Shown here one piece after another: positions 6,232-58,959 of a stretch of DNA of 64,000 nt. Below the pieces are notes generated by a model that saw nothing but the letters and a program-made list of their open reading frames with translations, did not search any database and had not been told where the DNA came from. This DNA comes from Rhizodiscina lignyota (taxonomy: Eukaryota): the NCBI GenBank assembly GCA_010015805.1, contig ML978131.1, forward strand, positions 62,001-126,000, in the 5' to 3' direction. A program made the translations under genes and the position numbers. Numbering within the stretch: the first letter of the stretch is position 1; every line of letters begins with the position of its first letter.

Positions 6232-6633
6232 CTTGACTGATGTTCAGCGGCGATGCTGTGTGGTTGTTGATGTCGCCGAATTGGAGGTTCGCGATGCGAA
6301 AACGTTGTGGGCGGCTTGGCGTTCTGCACGGAGCGCCGGAGCAACAGAATCTCCGGATCGCTGCGGCGCGATTTGCGCCAAGACCATGACTTTTCCAAAC
6401 ATGTACTATCTCGTGCCACCGCGACGTGCTTAACTCCACATTGCGGGCGAGAGGTATCGCAGCTTTCTCACCTTCATTCACCCTTTTCTACTTCTTCCTT
6501 CTACAGGCTCGATATTCAATCCGCCTGCAGTCTGTGAAGAGGAAAACTCACAGGAGCGCATTGCTCCTTGCCACCGAGGCACCCCCCTCGACTTTTCTCA
6601 ATCTCGAGAAGCAATCCTCCAAACACCACCACA

Positions 6634-9600
6634 ATGTCTGGAATTCCTCCTCCACCACCAGGATGGCAGCCGCCCCCTCCACCAGGCCCTCCACCAGGCA
6701 TGTCTGCCGCTCCGCCTCCGCCAGGCTATCGGCCTCCAGCAGATCCTCAAACCGCGAAGTTCGCGCAGAAGAAGAAGGAATGGTTGAGATCACAGCGACA
6801 GAGATTCGGCGAGAAGAGGAAAGGTGGCTTTGTGGAGACACAGAAAGTTGATATGCCGCCTGAGCATCTGCGAAAGATTGTCAAGGATGTTGGCGATGTG
6901 TCGCAGAAGAAATTCAGCAGCGACAAGCGCAGCTATCTCGGTGCGCTGAAGTTCATGCCGCATGCTGTTCTCAAGCTTCTTGAGAATATGCCGATGCCGT
7001 GGGAGTCAACACGCGACGTCAAGGTGCTGTATCACGTCAACGGCTGTCTCACCTTGGTCAACGAGGTACCGCGTGTGATTGAGCCAGTCTTTCACGCGCA
7101 GTGGGCTACAATGTGGGTGGCTATGCGGCGAGAGAAGAGCGATAGGCGACACTTCAAGCGCATGCGATTCCCTCCCTTTGACGATGAGGAACCACCACTG
7201 TCGTGGTCGGAGAACATTGAAGATGTTGAGCCCTTGGAGCCAATCCAGATGGAACTTGACGAAGAGGAGGATGGACCGGTGTACGAGTGGTTTTACGAGC
7301 ATCAGCCACTTTTGGATACACCAAACGTCAACGGACCAAGCTACAAGACCTGGAATCTCACGTTGCCGCAGATGGCGACGCTTTACCGTCTAAGTCATCA
7401 GCTCCTCAGTGATCTGGTTGACAAGAACTACTTCCACATGTTCGACAAGGAGAGCTTTTTCACAGCGAAAGCTCTCAACGTCGCCATCCCAGGCGGCCCT
7501 CGCTTCGAGCCTCTCTACAAGGACATCGATCCCAACGACGAAGATTTTGGCGAATTCAACGCCATCGACCGCATCATCTTCCGTGCGCCGATCCGAACCG
7601 AATACCGCGTGTCATTCCCATACCTCTACAACTCCCTCCCTCGAAGCGTGAAGCTTTCCTGGTATTCATATCCTCAGGTTGTCTATGCCCATGCCAAAGA
7701 CCCCAATCTCCCAGCCTTCTACTTCGATCCGATCATCAACCCAATTTCTGCACGGACGGTCGCACCAAAGAACGTCACAGTCCGTCACGAAGACGAAATA
7801 TTTGGACTTGGCAATGATGAGGATGACGAGTTCGAGCTTCCAGCTGCGGTTGAACCGTTCTTCGCGGATGAGGAACTGTACACGGACGAAACAGCATCTG
7901 CGATTTCGCTTTGGTGGGCACCTTATCCCTTTGATAGGAGATCGGGTAAGATGGTACGCGCTCAAGACGTGCCACTCGTGAAACAGTGGTATCTGGAGCA
8001 TGTTCCGGGTGGTCAGCCGGTCAAAGTTCGAGTTTCGTACCAGAAACTTCTCAAGAGCTACGTTCTAAATGAGCTCCACAAGCGGCCACCGAAGGCTCAG
8101 AATAAGCAGAATCTGATGCGGTCTCTGAAGTCAACCAAGTTCTTCCAGCAAACCACCATCGACTGGGTCGAAGCAGGTCTTCAGGTCTGCCGGCAGGGCT
8201 TCAACATGCTCAATCTCTTGATTCATCGCAAGAATCTCACGTATCTCCATCTCGACTACAACTTCAACCTGAAGCCCATCAAGACTTTGACGACCAAGGA
8301 GCGAAAGAAGTCTCGGTTCGGAAACGCCTTCCATCTCATGCGGGAAATCCTGCGATTGACAAAGCTCATCGTTGATGCTCAAGTACAGTACCGGCTTGGC
8401 AATATCGACGCTTTCCAGCTTGCTGACGGTATCATGTACGCATTCAACCATGTTGGACAGCTTACGGGCATGTACCGTTACAAGTACAAGCTTATGCATC
8501 AAATTCGGTCTTGCAAAGATCTGAAGCATCTCATCTACTACCGCTTCAACTCCGGCCCAGTTGGCAAAGGACCAGGCTGTGGCTTTTGGGCGCCGGCATG
8601 GCGTGTTTGGCTGTTCTTCATGCGAGGGATTATCCCATTGCTTGAGCGCTGGCTCGGTAACTTACTATCAAGGCAGTTTGAGGGTCGTCACAGCAAGGGC
8701 GTCGCAAAAACTGTCACCAAGCAGCGTGTGGAGTCCCACTTCGACCTCGAGCTGAGGGCATCTGTTATGGCAGATCTCATGGATATGATGCCGGAGGGCA
8801 TTAAGCAGAACAAAGTCAACACTGTCCTGCAACATCTTTCTGAAGCTTGGAGATGCTGGAAGAGCAACATCCCATGGAAGGTGCCTGGTCTTCCAGCGCC
8901 CATTGAGAACATCATCTTGCGCTACGTAAAGAGCAAGGCTGACTGGTGGATTTCGGTTGCACACTACAACCGCGAGCGTATCCGCCGTGGTGCGACCGTG
9001 GACAAGACCGTAGCGAAGAAGAATCTTGGTCGATTGACCCGACTCTGGCTTAAGGCCGAGCAGGAGCGGCAGCACAACTACATGAAGGATGGACCGTACG
9101 TGTCTTCCGAAGAAGCTGTTTCGATCTACACGACTACGGTCCATTGGCTCGAGTCAAGGAAGTTCCAGCCAATACCATTCCCAAGCGTTTCGTACAAACA
9201 TGACACAAAGATCCTCATCCTTGCTCTGGAGAGGCTCAGGGAGGCGTATTCTGTCAAGGGTCGTTTGAACCAGAGTCAACGTGAGGAGCTGGCACTCATT
9301 GAGCAAGCCTACGACTCACCAGGAACCACGCTTGCTCGCATTAAGCGGTTCTTGCTCACGCAGCGAGCCTTCAAGGAAGTCGGTATTGACATGAACGACA
9401 ACTACAGCACTATCAATCCCGTTTATGATATCGAGCCAATCGAGAAGATCACAGATGCATACCTTGACCAGTACCTCTGGTATCAGGCCGATCAGCGACA
9501 CTTATTTCCGTCATGGATCAAGCCCTCAGACTCTGAAGTGCCTCCACTGTTGACTTACAAGTGGGCACAAGGCATCAACAACCTGGACAATGTCTGGGAG

Positions 9601-12600
9601 TTCAAGGATGGCGAATGCAATGTCATGATCGAGAGTCAGCTTTCGAAAGTTTACGAGAAGATTGATCTCACATTGCTCAACCGCTTGCTGCGCTTGATCA
9701 TGGACCACAACTTGGCTGATTACATCACGTCGAAGAACAATGTTCAACTCAACTACAAGGACATGAATCACATCAACACCTATGGAATGATCAGGGGTCT
9801 TCAATTCTCCGCCTTTGTCTTCCAGTACTATGGTCTGGTTATTGACCTCTTACTGCTTGGTTTACAGCGAGCTAGTGACTTGGCTGGGCCGGCGCAGACT
9901 CCAAATGACTTCTTGCAATTCAGAGATCGGGCGACAGAAACCAAGCATCCTATTCGGCTCTACACACGATACATTGATCGCATCTGGATGTTCTTCCGCT
10001 TTTCAGCAGAGGAAGCTAAAGAGCTCATTCAGCGTTTCTTGACTGAACAGCCAGATCCCAACTTCGAGAACGTCATCGGATACCATAACAAGAAATGCTG
10101 GCCAAGAGACTCCCGGATGAGGCTCATGAGGCACGATGTTAACCTTGGTCGTGCCGTATTCTGGGATCTCAAGAACCGCCTGCCTCGCTCAGTGACGACG
10201 ATTGAGTGGGATGATACTTTCGCGAGCGTCTACAGCCGTGATAACCCAAATTTGTTGTTCTCAATGTGCGGCTTCGAGGTCCGCATTCTACCGAAGATCC
10301 GGAACCTTGGCGACGAGTTCCCTACCAAAGACAGCGTTTGGTCATTGGTTGATAACACTACCAAGGAGCGTACTGCACACGCGTTCTTACAAGTCACTGA
10401 AGAGGATATTGCGAAGTTCAACAACCGCATCCGCCAGATCCTGATGTCTTCTGGTTCGACAACCTTCACCAAGATCGCAAATAAATGGAATACTGCGCTC
10501 ATCGCTCTATTCACATATTATCGCGAGGCTGCTGTGTCTACGGTGAACCTGCTCGACACCATCGTCAAGTGTGAAACCAAGATCCAGACGCGTGTCAAGA
10601 TTGGTCTCAATTCCAAGATGCCCTCCCGTTTCCCGCCAGCAGTGTTCTACACACCGAAGGAATTGGGTGGTCTTGGTATGATATCTGGATCTCACATCCT
10701 TATCCCTGCGAGCGACAAACGATGGTCGAAGCAGACCGACACTGGCGTGACTCACTACCGAGCTGGCATGTCTCATGATGAGGAGACTCTCATCCCCAAT
10801 ATCTTCCGTTACATCATTCCTTGGGAAGCCGAGTTCATTGACTCGCAGCGTGTCTGGACAGAGTACTCGCAGAAGCGTCTGGAGGCGAATCAACAGAACC
10901 GTCGTCTGACACTTGAGGACCTGGAGGACAGCTGGGACCGTGGCCTGCCCCGTATCAATACGCTCTTCCAGAAGGACCGTAGCACACTTAGCTTCGACAA
11001 GGGCTTCCGTGCAAGGACAGAGTTCAAGACCTACCAGCTTATGAAGAGCAATCCCTTCTGGTGGACGAGTCAGCGCCATGATGGCAAGTTATGGAACCTG
11101 AATGCCTATCGAACGGACGTCATTCAGGCTCTTGGTGGCGTTGAGACTATCCTTGAACATACGCTATTCAAGGCGACCGCCTTTCCATCTTGGGAAGGTT
11201 TATTCTGGGAGAAGGCCTCCGGCTTCGAAGGTGCATACCCCTTGACACACCCCTATCATCCTTAAACACTTCCCTCAAGTCCTTACCCTTCTTTTTCTTC
11301 TTTTTGGACTTCGACATGTTCGTTATTACACTGTTGTTCTGTTCATTCTTGTGGAGAGCACTATTGTGTTCCCAGAAGCATTGCACTCTTCTTCTGTTCA
11401 TCTTTGAGTAGAGCACTGTTGTGTTCCCACAATTAGTGCACCCTATCTCTGTTCATCCTTCTGGAGAGCACTTTTGTGTTCCCAGAATTAGTGCACTCTA
11501 CTTCTGTTTACCCTTCTGGCGACTGCCGTTGTGTTCCCAGAATTATTGCACTCTTCTTCTGTTGATCCTTCCAACGTGCTAACATATATACAGAGTCCAT
11601 GAAATTCAAAAAGCTTACAAACGCCCAACGCTCTGGACTGAACCAAATTCCGAACCGTCGCTTCACTCTTTGGTGGTCACCAACCATCAATCGCGCGAAT
11701 GTCTATGTCGGTTTCCAAGTTCAGCTGGATTTGACGGGTATCTTTCTGCACGGCAAGATCCCGACACTCAAGATCTCTCTGATCCAGATCTTCCGGGCCC
11801 ATCTGTGGCAGAAGATCCATGAATCAATAGTGCGACCCCTGGCTCCGTGATGTTTTTGAGACTCTGCTGACGTCAAATCAGGTTATGGATCTTTGCCAGG
11901 TTTTCGACCAAGAAATGGAGGCCCTCAGCGTAGAGACTGTGCAAAAAGAGACGATTCACCCTCGAAAATCGTACAAGATGAACAGTTCCTGTGCGGACAT
12001 CCTTCTATTTGCCAGCCACAAGTGGAGCGTGACTCAACCTTCACTTCTCTATGACACCAAGGATATCATAGCCTCGACCACGACCAACAAGTTCTGGATC
12101 GACGTGCAACTTCGATATGGCGACTACGATTCTCACGACATTGAGAGATATGTGCGCGCCAAGTATCTCGACTACACCACTGATAGCATGAGCATCTATC
12201 CTTCGGCTACTGGTCTGATGATAGGCATCGATCTCGCGTATAACCTCTACTCTGCTTACGGTCAATACTTCCCTGGTCTGAAGCAGCTTGTTCAGCAGGC
12301 AATGGCCAAGATCATGAAAGCAAACCCGGCGTTGTACGTGTTACGCGAACGTATTCGAAAGGGTCTTCAACTCTATGCATCTGAGAGCAATCAGGAGTTC
12401 CTGAACTCGCAGAACTACTCGGAGCTATTCAGCAATCAGATCCAGCTCTTCATTGACGACACCAACGTCTATCGTGTCACTATTCACAAGACATTTGAAG
12501 GCAATTTGACCACAAAGCCCATCAACGGAGCGATCTTCATCTTCAATCCTAGAACTGGACAGCTGTTCCTCAAGATCATCCACACGAGCGTCTGGGCCGG

Positions 12601-14125
12601 TCAGAAGCGTCTTGGACAGTTGGCCAAATGGAAGACTGCTGAGGAAGTAGCTGCACTCATCCGATCGCTGCCAGTCGAAGAACAGCCGAAGCAGCTAATC
12701 GTCACTCGCAAGGGTCTTCTGGATCCCCTTGAAGTGCATTTACTCGACTTCCCCAACATCTCGATTCGAGCATCTGAGCTGCAACTGCCTTTCCAGGCTG
12801 CGATGAAGGTTGAAAAGCTTGGTGACATGATTCTGAAGGCGACAGAGCCGCAGATGGTCCTCTTCAATCTTTATGACGAATGGTTGAAGTCGATTTCGTC
12901 GTACACCGCCTTTTCTCGTCTGGTTCTCATCCTTCGTGCCTTGCACGTAAACATGGATAAGACTAAGCTCATCCTTCGACCCGACAAGACGGTCGTCACC
13001 CAGGAACATCACATTTGGCCTACCCTTTCTGATGAAGATTGGATCAAGGTCGAAGTGCAGCTCCGCGACTTGATCTTGAATGACTATGGCAAGAAGAATA
13101 ATGTCAACACCTCAAGCTTGACAAGTAGCGAAGTGCGCGACATCATTCTTGGTATGGAGATTAGTGCACCATCGATGCAGCGACAGCAAGCGGCCGAGAT
13201 CGAGAAGCAACAGCAGGAACAGCAGCAGCTCACAGCTGTCACGACCAAGACCCAGAATGTGCATGGCGAAGAGATTGTCGTCACGACTACATCTCAATAC
13301 GAACAGGCGACCTTCGCTTCGAAAACAGAGTGGCGAACTCGTGCCATCGCAACGTCCAATCTTCGTACGAGGTCCAACAATATCTACATCTCGTCGGAGG
13401 ATGTGCGCGAGGAGGACCACCCGACCTACATCATGCCGAAGAACATTCTCAAGCGATTCATTACGATTGCCGATTTGCGAGTGCAAGTTGCCGGATTCTT
13501 GTATGGATCGTCGCCACCAGACAACGAGGGGGTCAAGGAGATCAAGACTATTGTCATGATTCCACAAGTTGGAAGCACTCGCGACGTGAATCTACCACTT
13601 CAGCTCCCAGAGCACGAATATCTGAATGGTCTGGAGCCACTGGGTGTCATCCACACGCAGAGTGGTAACGAGGCATCGTACATGAGCGCTGCGGACGTGA
13701 CACAGCACGCACGTCTTATGAACACCCATTCTTCATGGGACAAGAAGACTGTCACCATGACCGTCTCCTTCACACCGGGCTCGGTCAGCCTTTCTGCCTG
13801 GGCCCTCAACCCTAACGGCTACAAGTGGGGTGCAGAGAACCGCGACATGTCTTCGGATCAGCCAGCCGGCTTTGCTACCAACTTCGGCGATAGGTGCCAG
13901 ATCCTCCTGAGCGACAAGATCATGGGGTACTTCTTGGTGCCGGAGACAGGCGTGTGGAACTACAGCTTCATGGGCAGTGCGTTCGACAGCATTAAGAAGA
14001 GGGCACCACATGTGCAGATTGATACCCCTGCGAGGTTCTACGATGCGTTACATCGTCCGGTGCATTTCCAGAGCTTCGCGGAACTGGAGGACGTGTGGGT
14101 GGATCGGAGTGACAACTTTGCCTGA
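6634..14125 (+). CDS. PRP8: Pre-mRNA splicing factor Prp8 (U5 snRNP); no intein; introns 11231-11593 and 11830-11881
   Basis: Highly conserved Prp8 sequence across ORFs 6568..11265, 11599..11850 and 11885..14125; splicing restores [17 protein letters not shown] and HESI|VMDL. Confidence 0.99.
11323..11572. repeat. 55-bp tandem minisatellite (about 4.5 copies) inside PRP8 intron 1
   Basis: CTGTT(C/T/G)A recurs at 11339, 11394, 11449, 11504, 11559 (period 55); unit approximately CTGTTCATCCTTCTGGAGAGCACTNTTGTGTTCCCAGAATTAKTGCACTCTWCTT. Confidence 0.95.
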
Positions 14126-57600: not shown

Positions 57601-57820
57601 GGAGAAGGACGCGAAGTACAACAACAATTACGATCGGGGTGTGAAGTTTTGCAAAGATGTTTTCGACACGATCAAGGTGTTGGACGAGGGGGACAGGCAG
57701 CATGCGACCTGCGACTACCTAAAGGCGCACGACGGTTTCGGAAGCTGCAATGGTCACATAAAAGACTTGCCTTGGTGCAATGCCATCAAGGACATCCGCA
57801 AAATGTGCAAGGATCTCTAA
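54602..57820 (+). CDS. Large intronless putatively secreted protein (1072 aa) of unknown function
   Basis: First ATG in the long frame is 54602 (MFGLRHTVTFLCALQSSVNAG, signal-like); internal hydrophobic segment LGTALISLAGIIAMPVTFGA; Cys-rich C-terminal third. Confidence 0.8.
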   Translation: MFGLRHTVTFLCALQSSVNAGTVRRQINLPRGAKSSKARTTTTLPLDVEKLIADMRSLLPRDGTPAWIHEPGGWWSCSVDGTKIVIGDTPLDEFLQTLEQNHCALPVGFDSKGRLQPPGQSYNAPNDEKNPLNTSHNGTALTEAEFDQLMARMDAITRDAKRFKILRRELELAYPAFAGLFDNIPEILEVDRDIMKRVVQIPGFGEFTRSVGHLTSDTAQNRYILIEGAQYFDQWANMSGRVSTDTQTDFITTHLPSSASKWKCTGGVGGCPDLNLYRDVAPHYPDDPAMARKVFGVLKGFHHLHIQQELLFYVADTMEKHLPGECASAVSSFMASTRHTNEWCKVRKAFQHLGTALISLAGIIAMPVTFGASADVVTTAIAADLATLSEDLGLIAVEATTDAASAIGEGGELFAEMGETIYSGTAVAEKGAAAPEEITALTRYQGVTANQQIGKWAPTYLVREGDQVLGLYGPFGEQEAVTAGLEESTVAGPRSWVESLEGLPPANEHPLFARNIFRGEAWLQNMDQEPEILQDALVQDEYLDQIVTQDEAKFIATASRRIDNVKNWLDQLDDRFHLVLEITPRIEFPELIDRLKRRRAEANSSVEHTAVPYHFQSRIFESFNPITNRSDLVADAQDAEILLAIAATYGWKPKQMSKRSIQINHSGNDEIIDEVKYARRATNSKTTVQSAGTKLLISRRGQMFDRLYSKKGCTESFKVDKEQATQACKDGFKDATDALRESARVKDDPQGLAKQMMDLFGGRDAGKNAAAIQIWASHPRDLEKKVEGINLSAMTSKCWGDGQCYVMCVPKAHAEKGQLDCSYEGTYCPPEKPDTICRVQCFDALNIDNDELHGITKLSQAPWNMTVRDVVKHSWNLYQSKDPARFTPGTVAFDLSDTSNPIGPPAPNLVVCNTELVHLEYFSKDDDRVIPWNCGDRYGSETLRVWNALNFKMIPDRPKSKLFKFPKDEAHRFFKDNHEIAEYTINMCRVYFGGLYPNGREKDAKYNNNYDRGVKFCKDVFDTIKVLDEGDRQHATCDYLKAHDGFGSCNGHIKDLPWCNAIKDIRKMCKDL

Positions 57821-57881
57821 TTTGAGTAGTTTGAGCGGTGGTACTTCAAGTAGTGTTGGTTTGACTGGTGTTTCGTTCGGG

Positions 57882-58030
57882 CAGTGTTTCCTTTTTGTCA
57901 GTGTTTCCTTTTTGTCAGTGTTTCCTTTTTGTCAGTGTTTCCTTTTGGGTAGTGCTTTCGCTTGGGTAGTGTTTCCTTTTGGCTAGTGTTTCCTTTGGGT
58001 AGTAGTGTTTTCGTTTGATAGTGTTTACTT
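57882..58030. repeat. 17-bp tandem repeat decaying distally
   Basis: CAGTGTTTCCTTTTTGT at 57882, 57899 and 57916, then degenerate AGTGTTT copies. Confidence 0.9.
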
Positions 58031-58959
58031 GGAGTTGTGGCGTTGGAGTTAGTTATTGCTTTCAGGATACTTAAATGGTTAATGGGTTAGACTAGCTAGT
58101 TAAATGTTATGTAGTAATACGTATCTTAGTGTCTAATATATAACGTGTTGCCGGTGCTGATCCAATTTCGAGTCAAAGTGCCACGTCTGAAGGTAACATA
58201 GCGCTATGAATGAGATACGGTCCATCGCAAAGCTAACATCCGCCTTGACAAGAAGGCATAGTTGATGAGCAGCACTTCACTTTCGAACAGCTTCCGCCTC
58301 GGATGAGAGGAAGATTTAACAACTTTCATAGTAGTCGCGATACTAATGTATTGTCCTCCTGGAAGAGCGTCGTCTATCCGCTCGAACTCCCACACAATTT
58401 GCATATCGCTCCACTACAAGAGCGCAACCCATTCGCCCGATTGTATGCAAGGACAGGATACCGCTTCAAGCGAAGAGTCATATCCGTCAGCAATGGCGGC
58501 AACAATGATAACAGGTGTTCTGTCGGAAGAAAGATCATCATTTCTTGTGCGAGATCACGACCTCAACGTGCGCTTCTGTCGGAAGAGCATTATGCTTCAG
58601 TTGCAGTGGACTTCATAGCATCGTATTATTTTATAGGAAGAGTGTTTTGCACCATGTGTTGTAGGTCGCCAGCTCAGGCATGCTTCCCTCAGGAGAATGT
58701 TTGCATCAAGCCTTGGTAGTTCCACGACTTGCGAATGCTCTCCTCGGAAGAATGCTTTACACCAGTCTGGGCGGCGGCGACAAGAACCACGTATTCATCC
58801 GTTGGAAGAACATTCTCTATCAATGATAACTGTCACACGAGCGTGGTGTACTCTCGTCGGAAGAGCGCTGGGGAAAACAATTCGAGCAGAATCACTGATC
58901 ACACATCTGATTCTTGTCAAGCGAGACCCAACGCCAGCCTCCACTTAGCAGAAGCCCGT

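Follow-up and report, generated by a model that had tools for sequence, protein, structure and literature searches.

Does a spliceosomal intron that lies close to an intein homing site owe its place, or its length, to the intein? This question is raised by the PRP8 gene of Rhizodiscina lignyota on a stretch of 64,000 nt of contig ML978131.1 (assembly GCA_010015805.1, positions 62,001 to 126,000 of the forward strand; hereafter the window). In this gene, intein insertion site a is empty, and a GT-AG intron of 363 nt (intron 1) follows at a distance of 13 nt. In the original prediction, this intron was regarded either as a device that protects the allele against intein invasion or as a scar left by the repair of an endonuclease cut. 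The present analysis favors a simpler account: very probably, intron 1 is an ordinary U2-type spliceosomal intron in an intein-free Pezizomycotina PRP8 gene, which is located at a recurrent position beside site a and has been lengthened by a minisatellite.

The first intron of PRP8 and its tandem repeat

The features of the gene are compiled in Table 1, and intron positions are given throughout relative to the site a junction. The coding sequence upstream of intron 1 reads TTC TGG GAG AAG GCC|TCC GGC TTC GAA G, followed directly by the donor GTGCAT. No in-frame intein, for which a Cys after FWEKA and a His-Asn before SGFEE served as criterion, is present at site a, where the codons GCC|TCC are contiguous. 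The empty site, the intron-free 4.6 kb that precede it, and the coordinates of the intron had all been described correctly. The 3' end of intron 1 reads GTGCTAACATATATACAG up to position 11593, and exon 2 opens with AG TCC ATG AAA TTC. With its terminal ACAG and a branch point of the CTRAY type (CTAAC), the intron has the boundaries of fungal U2-type GT-AG introns.

Removal of introns 1 and 2 yields a PRP8 protein of 2,358 aa without internal stop codon, which is collinear with the PRP8 proteins of all 80 metagenomic loci described below. Pfam PRP8 domains were matched in homologs, and the closest named PRP8 proteins, from Dothideomycetes, Chaetothyriales, and lichen fungi, are 85-90% identical over the N-terminal 500 aa. 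Without splicing, the frame of exon 1 closes at a stop codon at 11263-11265 (open reading frame 6538..11265). Given this closed frame and the essential nature of PRP8, intron 1 is probably spliced out. A joint from 11222 to 11641 (418 positions skipped) in an independent run, X2, was considered as a case of intron absence and rejected, as the sample is mixed and the joint belongs to another organism.

Table 1. PRP8 features in the window, with positions counted from its first nucleotide
Feature	Position	Strand	Description
PRP8 exon 1	6634..11230	+	4,597 nt, no intron; one open frame from the ATG at 6634, ends FWEKASGFE + G
Intein site a, empty	11215..11220	+	GCC|TCC = Ala|Ser, junction 11217/11218
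Intron 1	11231..11593	+	363 nt, GT-AG, phase 1, +13 from site a; removal restores the conserved SGFEESMKFKK
Intron 1, 5' splice site	11231..11236	+	GTGCAT; A at +5 where G is usual
Intron 1, 55-nt tandem repeat (minisatellite)	11323..11571	+	4.5 copies, 80% matches, Tandem Repeats Finder score 300
Intron 1, branch-point consensus CTAAC	11579..11583	+	branch A 11 nt from the 3' end
PRP8 exon 2	11594..11829	+	236 nt
PRP8 intron 2	11830..11881	+	52 nt, phase 0, +249 from site a, 12 nt upstream of VMDL|CQVF
PRP8 exon 3	11882..14125	+	ends DRSDNFA, then stop

The length of intron 1 results from a tandem repeat that was not mentioned in the original prediction. The repeat array accounts for 249 of the 363 nt and is flanked by 92 nt of non-repeat sequence toward the 5' end and 22 nt toward the 3' end; without it, the intron has an ordinary fungal size. 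Copies start at constant intervals (55, 55, and 55 nt according to the repeat finder) and are thus in register. Head-to-tail units of 10-100 nt in several copies define a minisatellite, and the array is of this kind. A contig of run X2 is identical to the window across 11370-11587; the array is therefore real and no assembly artifact of the source run. As individual copies are merely 65-80% alike, the expansion is probably not very recent. The last, partial copy extends directly into the branch-point region, which suggests a tandem duplication of the intron's own 3' part. Non-coding head-to-tail units such as these are nothing unusual for intron-internal minisatellites. A comparable case is found in one of the metagenomic loci, L055, in which about 55 nt inside the intron at +100 (approximately L055:7090-7280), branch-point motif included, are duplicated in tandem; this duplication seems to parallel the apparent growth of intron 1.

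The claim that intron 1 is unusually long stands insofar as it is the longest among the PRP8 introns compared, which were 53 fungal introns of 50-302 nt, a 48-nt intron in locus L030, and the two of the window. The connection of this length with inteins does not, since it stems from the minisatellite and presumably has no bearing on inteins. A decayed intein as the source of intron 1 was examined with eight inteins and rejected, as the best tblastn match had an E value of 1.4 and blastn gave none at E<=0.1. A search against Rfam with 11100-11950 gave no match at E<=1. For the range of 45-160 nt that the original prediction gives for other introns of the window, intron 2 of PRP8 (52 nt) is the confirmed case. 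Two heuristic intron scans of the window were too rich in false positives to check this range, and their most credible short candidates measure 49-57 and 115 nt; the first scan overlooked intron 1 because of its GTGCAT donor. A further scan candidate is a 623-nt intron at 57639-58261, behind an open frame of 1,158 codons, which may equally be an intergenic gap.

According to the favored account, intron 1 would occupy one of several alternative positions that fungal introns take within about 20 nt of site a. A once-short intron would then have been expanded internally by the 55-nt minisatellite, probably through tandem duplication of its own 3' part. The intron would represent one state in a long-running turnover of introns at site a.

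Intron and intein states at PRP8 site a

With the 163 residues that precede site a as query, the metagenome scan yielded 80 loci with up to 4 kb of sequence on each side. Introns were mapped by ungapped tblastn, chaining of high-scoring segment pairs, and an exhaustive search for GT/GC-AG junctions that had to restore the protein; cases at site a were checked by eye, and L055 was resolved by hand. An intron within the 489-nt query region puts a locus at a disadvantage in this search. Counts upstream of site a are therefore depressed, while the comparison downstream is unaffected. Fifty-seven loci (L001-L057) are Pezizomycotina-like and 85-99% identical to the query region, with L056 and L057 at 77-79%. 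The other 23 loci (L058-L080) are 77-85% identical over the query region and have no intein and, within 30 nt of site a, no intron.

Site a is occupied by an intein in 12 of the 57 fungal loci (L018, L024, L028, L031, L030, L033, L043, L045, L049, L051, L052, and L055). In the eight metagenomic alleles that were read across both intein ends (FWEKA|C...HN|SGFEE), insertion is exactly at A|S, as had been stated for fungal PRP8 inteins in general. Exactly one intron between -3 and +17 is present in 24 loci, among which L030 also contains an intein. Neither an intein nor a near-site intron is present in 21 loci, and the contig of L053 ends ahead of site a. The PRP8 genes of L018, L024, and L031 are 98.9% identical to that of L028 at the nucleotide level and carry mini-inteins of 173 aa as compared with 180 aa, which points to a recent length change of 7 codons.

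The near-site introns are distributed over the positions -3 (7 loci), -1 (1 locus), +4 (3 loci), +5 (1 locus), +12 (5 loci), +13 (L030, plus the window), +14 (2 loci), +15 (3 loci), and +17 (1 locus). The 23 near-site introns other than that of L030 have typical fungal 5' splice sites, a 3'-terminal AG, and branch points resembling CTAAC/CTGAC, a motif that was seen by eye, without counting, in most introns of the loci. The near-site intron of L030 ends in AAG. One of the introns at +15 is a GC-AG intron of 302 nt (GCAAGT...CATAG; approximately L011:4493-4794), and its donor is the sole non-GT donor among the mapped fungal introns.

Over about 6,960 nt of coding sequence, the 57 loci and the window contain 29 distinct intron positions (31 if the two of L055 are counted), and nine of these 29 are located within 21 nt of site a. 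On the PRP8 protein tree, intron and intein states are interleaved. Most of the lineages are old, with third codon positions about 50% identical in nucleotide comparison. Different states are also found between closer relatives: L034 (+17), L040 (+5), and L038 (+12) share 83-85% nucleotide identity, and L014, without an intron, is 90.5% identical to L035, which has one at -3. Similarity among the mapped introns, as determined by blastn, is limited to duplicates, to close relatives with an intron at the same position, and to a few matches of 20-28 nt; such short matches between different introns are confined to the non-fungal loci L064, L071, L073, and L074. Introns at different positions have no common sequence in these comparisons, and the same is true for L039 and L044, both of which have their intron at +4. 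The sequence comparison therefore has no power as a test for sliding, and gain and sliding are indistinguishable.

Crowding of introns is not restricted to site a. A second cluster brackets VMDL|CQVF, which is located at +261 (junction 11893/11894), with positions +239, +241, +246, +249 (intron 2 of the window), +263, and +268; the loci concerned are L012, L015, L017, L050, L057, and L059. We know of no fungal intein at this site. VMDL|CQVF, which follows site a at a distance of 87 residues, is an intein site designated site d in the account of Bathycoccus by Monier 2013 (PMC3749507), from which, together with the spliced PRP8 protein, its position in the window was computed; in one sentence of PMC10710043, the labels b and d appear to be exchanged. 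A third cluster comprises +95, +98, +100, +105, and +113, plus +138, in the region of WWSPTINR (L004, L005, L011, L015, L029, L030, L032, L047, L055, L056, and L057). No known intein site, the described sites c, e, and f included, could be placed at +95 to +113.

The locus L030 bears directly on the question of whether an intron at +13 keeps inteins out. Its sequence reads FWERA|C...(887 aa)...HN|SGFE G|GTATGT...(48 nt)...AAAG|AG TCG ATG and thus contains an intein together with an intron at exactly +13. The intein has an intact open frame with matches to the Pfam families Hom_end_hint (E=1e-9) and, marginally above its curated cut-off, Hom_end (E=1.7e-4). The +13 intron therefore does not exclude the intein. 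Coexistence of the two had been named beforehand in the original prediction as a finding that would speak against protection; mutual exclusion does not hold at +13, and by this standard protection fails for that position. What remains of the claim is a smaller share of introns among intein alleles. After loci with at least 97% identity had been merged into 46 clusters, two of which have an unknown C-side, a near-site intron was present in 1 of 7 intein alleles and 20 of 37 empty alleles (Fisher's exact test, two-sided p=0.097, relatedness uncorrected). The negative trend between intron and intein at site a is at most weak and not significant. Introns at -3 to +5 were seen exclusively in empty alleles among the 57 loci. 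Scoring PRP8 genes for intein versus intron, as proposed in the original prediction, thus revealed the crowding of positions at the site but not an exclusion at +13.

Introns next to site a have been recorded before. In Tables 1 and 4 of Butler et al. 2006 (PMC1508164), a column 'C-termin. intron' is given beside the PRP8 intein site, without exact positions, and the introns listed there measure 51-177 bp. An intein is combined with such an intron in A. nidulans (177 bp), A. fumigatus (51 bp), N. fischeri (55 bp), A. giganteus (53 bp), B. cinerea (62 bp), and Cryptococcus (52-65 bp). The intron is listed without an intein for A. clavatus, A. lentulus, P. nodorum, C. globosum, P. anserina, S. 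sclerotiorum, and three Cryptococcus species, and many further species with or without an intein have no such intron. These tables contain no negative trend between intron and intein.

Alternative explanations

Some observations weigh against the reading of intron 1 as an ordinary, secondarily lengthened intron. The donor GTGCAT is weaker than the consensus, which in the loci is represented by GTAAGT, GTATGT, and GTGAGT. For a preset interval of 20 nt on either side of site a, 0.17 intron positions were expected, and the crowding found there has a binomial P of about 8e-14; because intron positions crowd around the homing site, the location of intron 1 may not be neutral toward the intein. Finally, the predicted fold of the intron RNA is strong (-89 kcal/mol, z=-6.0, with none of 100 shuffled sequences as stable), which could hint at a function. 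Each 55-nt unit can fold into the same short hairpin, and tandem hairpin-forming repeats alone would yield a fold of such stability. The alternatives considered in the following concern the origin or the side-effects of intron 1 and are compatible with the core of the favored account.

A broader interpretation is that the homing sites of PRP8 inteins form hotspots at which spliceosomal introns are repeatedly gained or turned over, as might be indicated by at least nine positions in 21 nt at site a of an otherwise intron-poor 7-kb gene and by the second cluster at site d. The introns would be the sole viable functional resistance alleles, or they would arise from endonuclease breaks that are repaired into introns, and the intron of the window would be one such allele. 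In this general form the idea is doubtful. Some link between homing sites and intron turnover is plausible, and the intron of the window itself may take part in it. No quantified description of the nine-position series was found in the searchable literature, which did not cover Elleuche 2009 and Poulter 2007.

An effect on homing is the first of its two possible readings. Intron 1 replaces the target of a PRP8 intein endonuclease from +14 onward, so that the enzyme could neither bind nor cut and the allele would stay empty; as the site would not survive amino acid changes and the enzyme tolerates silent ones, few options other than an intron would be both resistant and functional. Barzel 2011 reported that wobble changes in the target are tolerated and assumed that flanks of seven codons cover any known homing target. 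All nine clustered positions, from -3 to +17 and including +13, fall within these flanks, which are generic and not the footprint of a PRP8 endonuclease. PRP8 inteins match Pfam families of the PI-SceI type. PI-SceI contacts extend to about +21 on the C-extein side. The endonuclease of the B. cinerea PRP8 intein is active, with a homing efficiency of 100% in crosses (PMC3158057), and cleaves a target consisting of extein sequence only (PMC3159444, legend of Figure 5). According to the same source, it also cleaves a human genomic target whose edge is formed by the end of a human intron within the Trp codon of FWEKA. Resistance would further agree with the excess of near-site introns in dereplicated empty alleles and has been published as an idea for Eupenicillium, Bathycoccus, and Anaeramoeba. 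It is opposed by L030, with its full-length intein and an intron at exactly +13, and by the tables of Butler et al., in which four species have a full-length intein and a nearby intron, while the B. cinerea intein homes with full efficiency; in addition, the difference between empty and intein alleles lacks significance, with the relatedness of loci uncorrected. That intron 1 acts as a resistance allele is thus regarded as unlikely.

The second reading concerns the origin of the intron. Repair of an endonuclease break at site a could have introduced filler DNA that was spliceable by chance, and recurrence of this process, or of an intein-primed gain, would produce many positions. The nine positions in 21 nt, the interleaved states on the PRP8 tree, and the differing positions in the related loci L034, L040, and L038 are in line with such a process. 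Neither flanking direct repeats nor another filler signature is visible at 11231/11593, however. A LAGLIDADG endonuclease is expected to cut no more than a few nt from the insertion site. Of the nine positions, however, the five at +12 to +17, which hold 12 of the 24 intron-bearing loci, are off this expected cut. Comparable clusters are present at +95 to +113, where no known intein site could be placed, and neither a common sequence among introns at different positions nor a distinction between gain and sliding is available. A repair scar therefore appears rather improbable as the origin of intron 1.

An origin from a mobile element is about equally improbable. In this case, the interior would be a dispersed element, such as a miniature inverted-repeat transposable element (MITE) or an introner-like element, which entered or created the intron and was subsequently amplified in tandem. 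A copy of the segment 11266..11396 (+; 131 nt), about 85% identical with 13 mismatches and 7 gaps, is carried by a second contig of X1, the likely source run, and a paralog of part of the interior is thus present elsewhere in the genome. The unrelated flanks of this copy, the stable predicted structure, and a length that far exceeds that of neighboring introns are in line with a mobile element. Against it, introner-like introns are marked by many near-identical copies in the introns of unrelated genes, whereas this is the single other copy with a likeness of at least 80% among the aligned contigs of two runs, and it does not include the splice sites. Moreover, intron 1 has no match below E=0.2 in the remaining 63.6 kb of the window and none by blastn in the 80 metagenomic loci, and terminal inverted repeats were not found in it.

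The weakest alternative, that a poorly spliced, structured intron in a core spliceosome gene provides feedback on PRP8 via intron retention, is consistent with the non-consensus 5' splice site, with the structured repeats and their several CAG decoy sites, and with the fact that in this region of the gene, which has few introns elsewhere, some intron is kept in the majority of empty alleles, but is very improbable given that 21 of the 57 fungal loci have neither a near-site intron nor an intein and that the 55-nt repeat is matched in no relative among the 80 loci.

Related systems and further observations

The class of introns beside site a and the protection hypothesis are thus both already known, and the intron of the window alone is a further example of a feature tabulated in 2006. 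It may be identical in position to the C-terminal intron of Butler et al., whose tables are without exact positions; the window intron differs from the introns listed there by its length of 363 nt and its 55-nt minisatellite. According to PMC10710043, acquisition of an intron may prevent homing through disruption of the endonuclease site, an idea that is credited there to Elleuche 2009 for the Prp8 inteins of Eupenicillium. This case likewise concerns a fungal prp8 intron at or near the intein site that was proposed as a barrier to homing. Bathycoccus, which is cited in PMC10710043 as a further case, has at PRP8 site d an intron of 135 bp that is mutually exclusive with an intein and for which an intein-primed gain has been proposed (Monier 2013, PMC3749507). 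As in the window, this is a phase 1 intron beside a PRP8 intein site; in contrast to the exclusivity in Bathycoccus, the intron position +13 coexists with an intein in L030. For Anaeramoeba, PMC10710043 likewise describes paralogs that lack the intein and have an intron at its site or close by, and these introns are read as homing barriers. That system differs from the present one in the genes concerned, in belonging to another eukaryotic supergroup, and in being a comparison of paralogs rather than a series of positions across many species.

The series of positions is of wider interest than the single intron. How new spliceosomal introns originate has long been debated, and it is of practical concern how functional resistance to homing or gene-drive nucleases can exist at sites that are essential and cannot change. 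If the link to homing sites is true, both questions could be tested directly at a site with nine positions in 21 nt, as yeast assays are possible for the adjoining nuclease target.

Introns near inteins may extend beyond PRP8, as is hinted at by the legend of Figure 3 in PMC1635734 for RNA polymerase genes. It lists an intron at 1192 and an intein at 1195 for P. nodorum, and an intron at 1688 and an intein at 1696 for C. reinhardtii; the closeness is not remarked upon by the authors in this legend. A separate observation concerns the metagenomic locus L046, in which a 108-nt insertion without a GT-AG solution is located at PRP8 residues 1324-1328 and may be either an in-frame insertion or an unusual intron.

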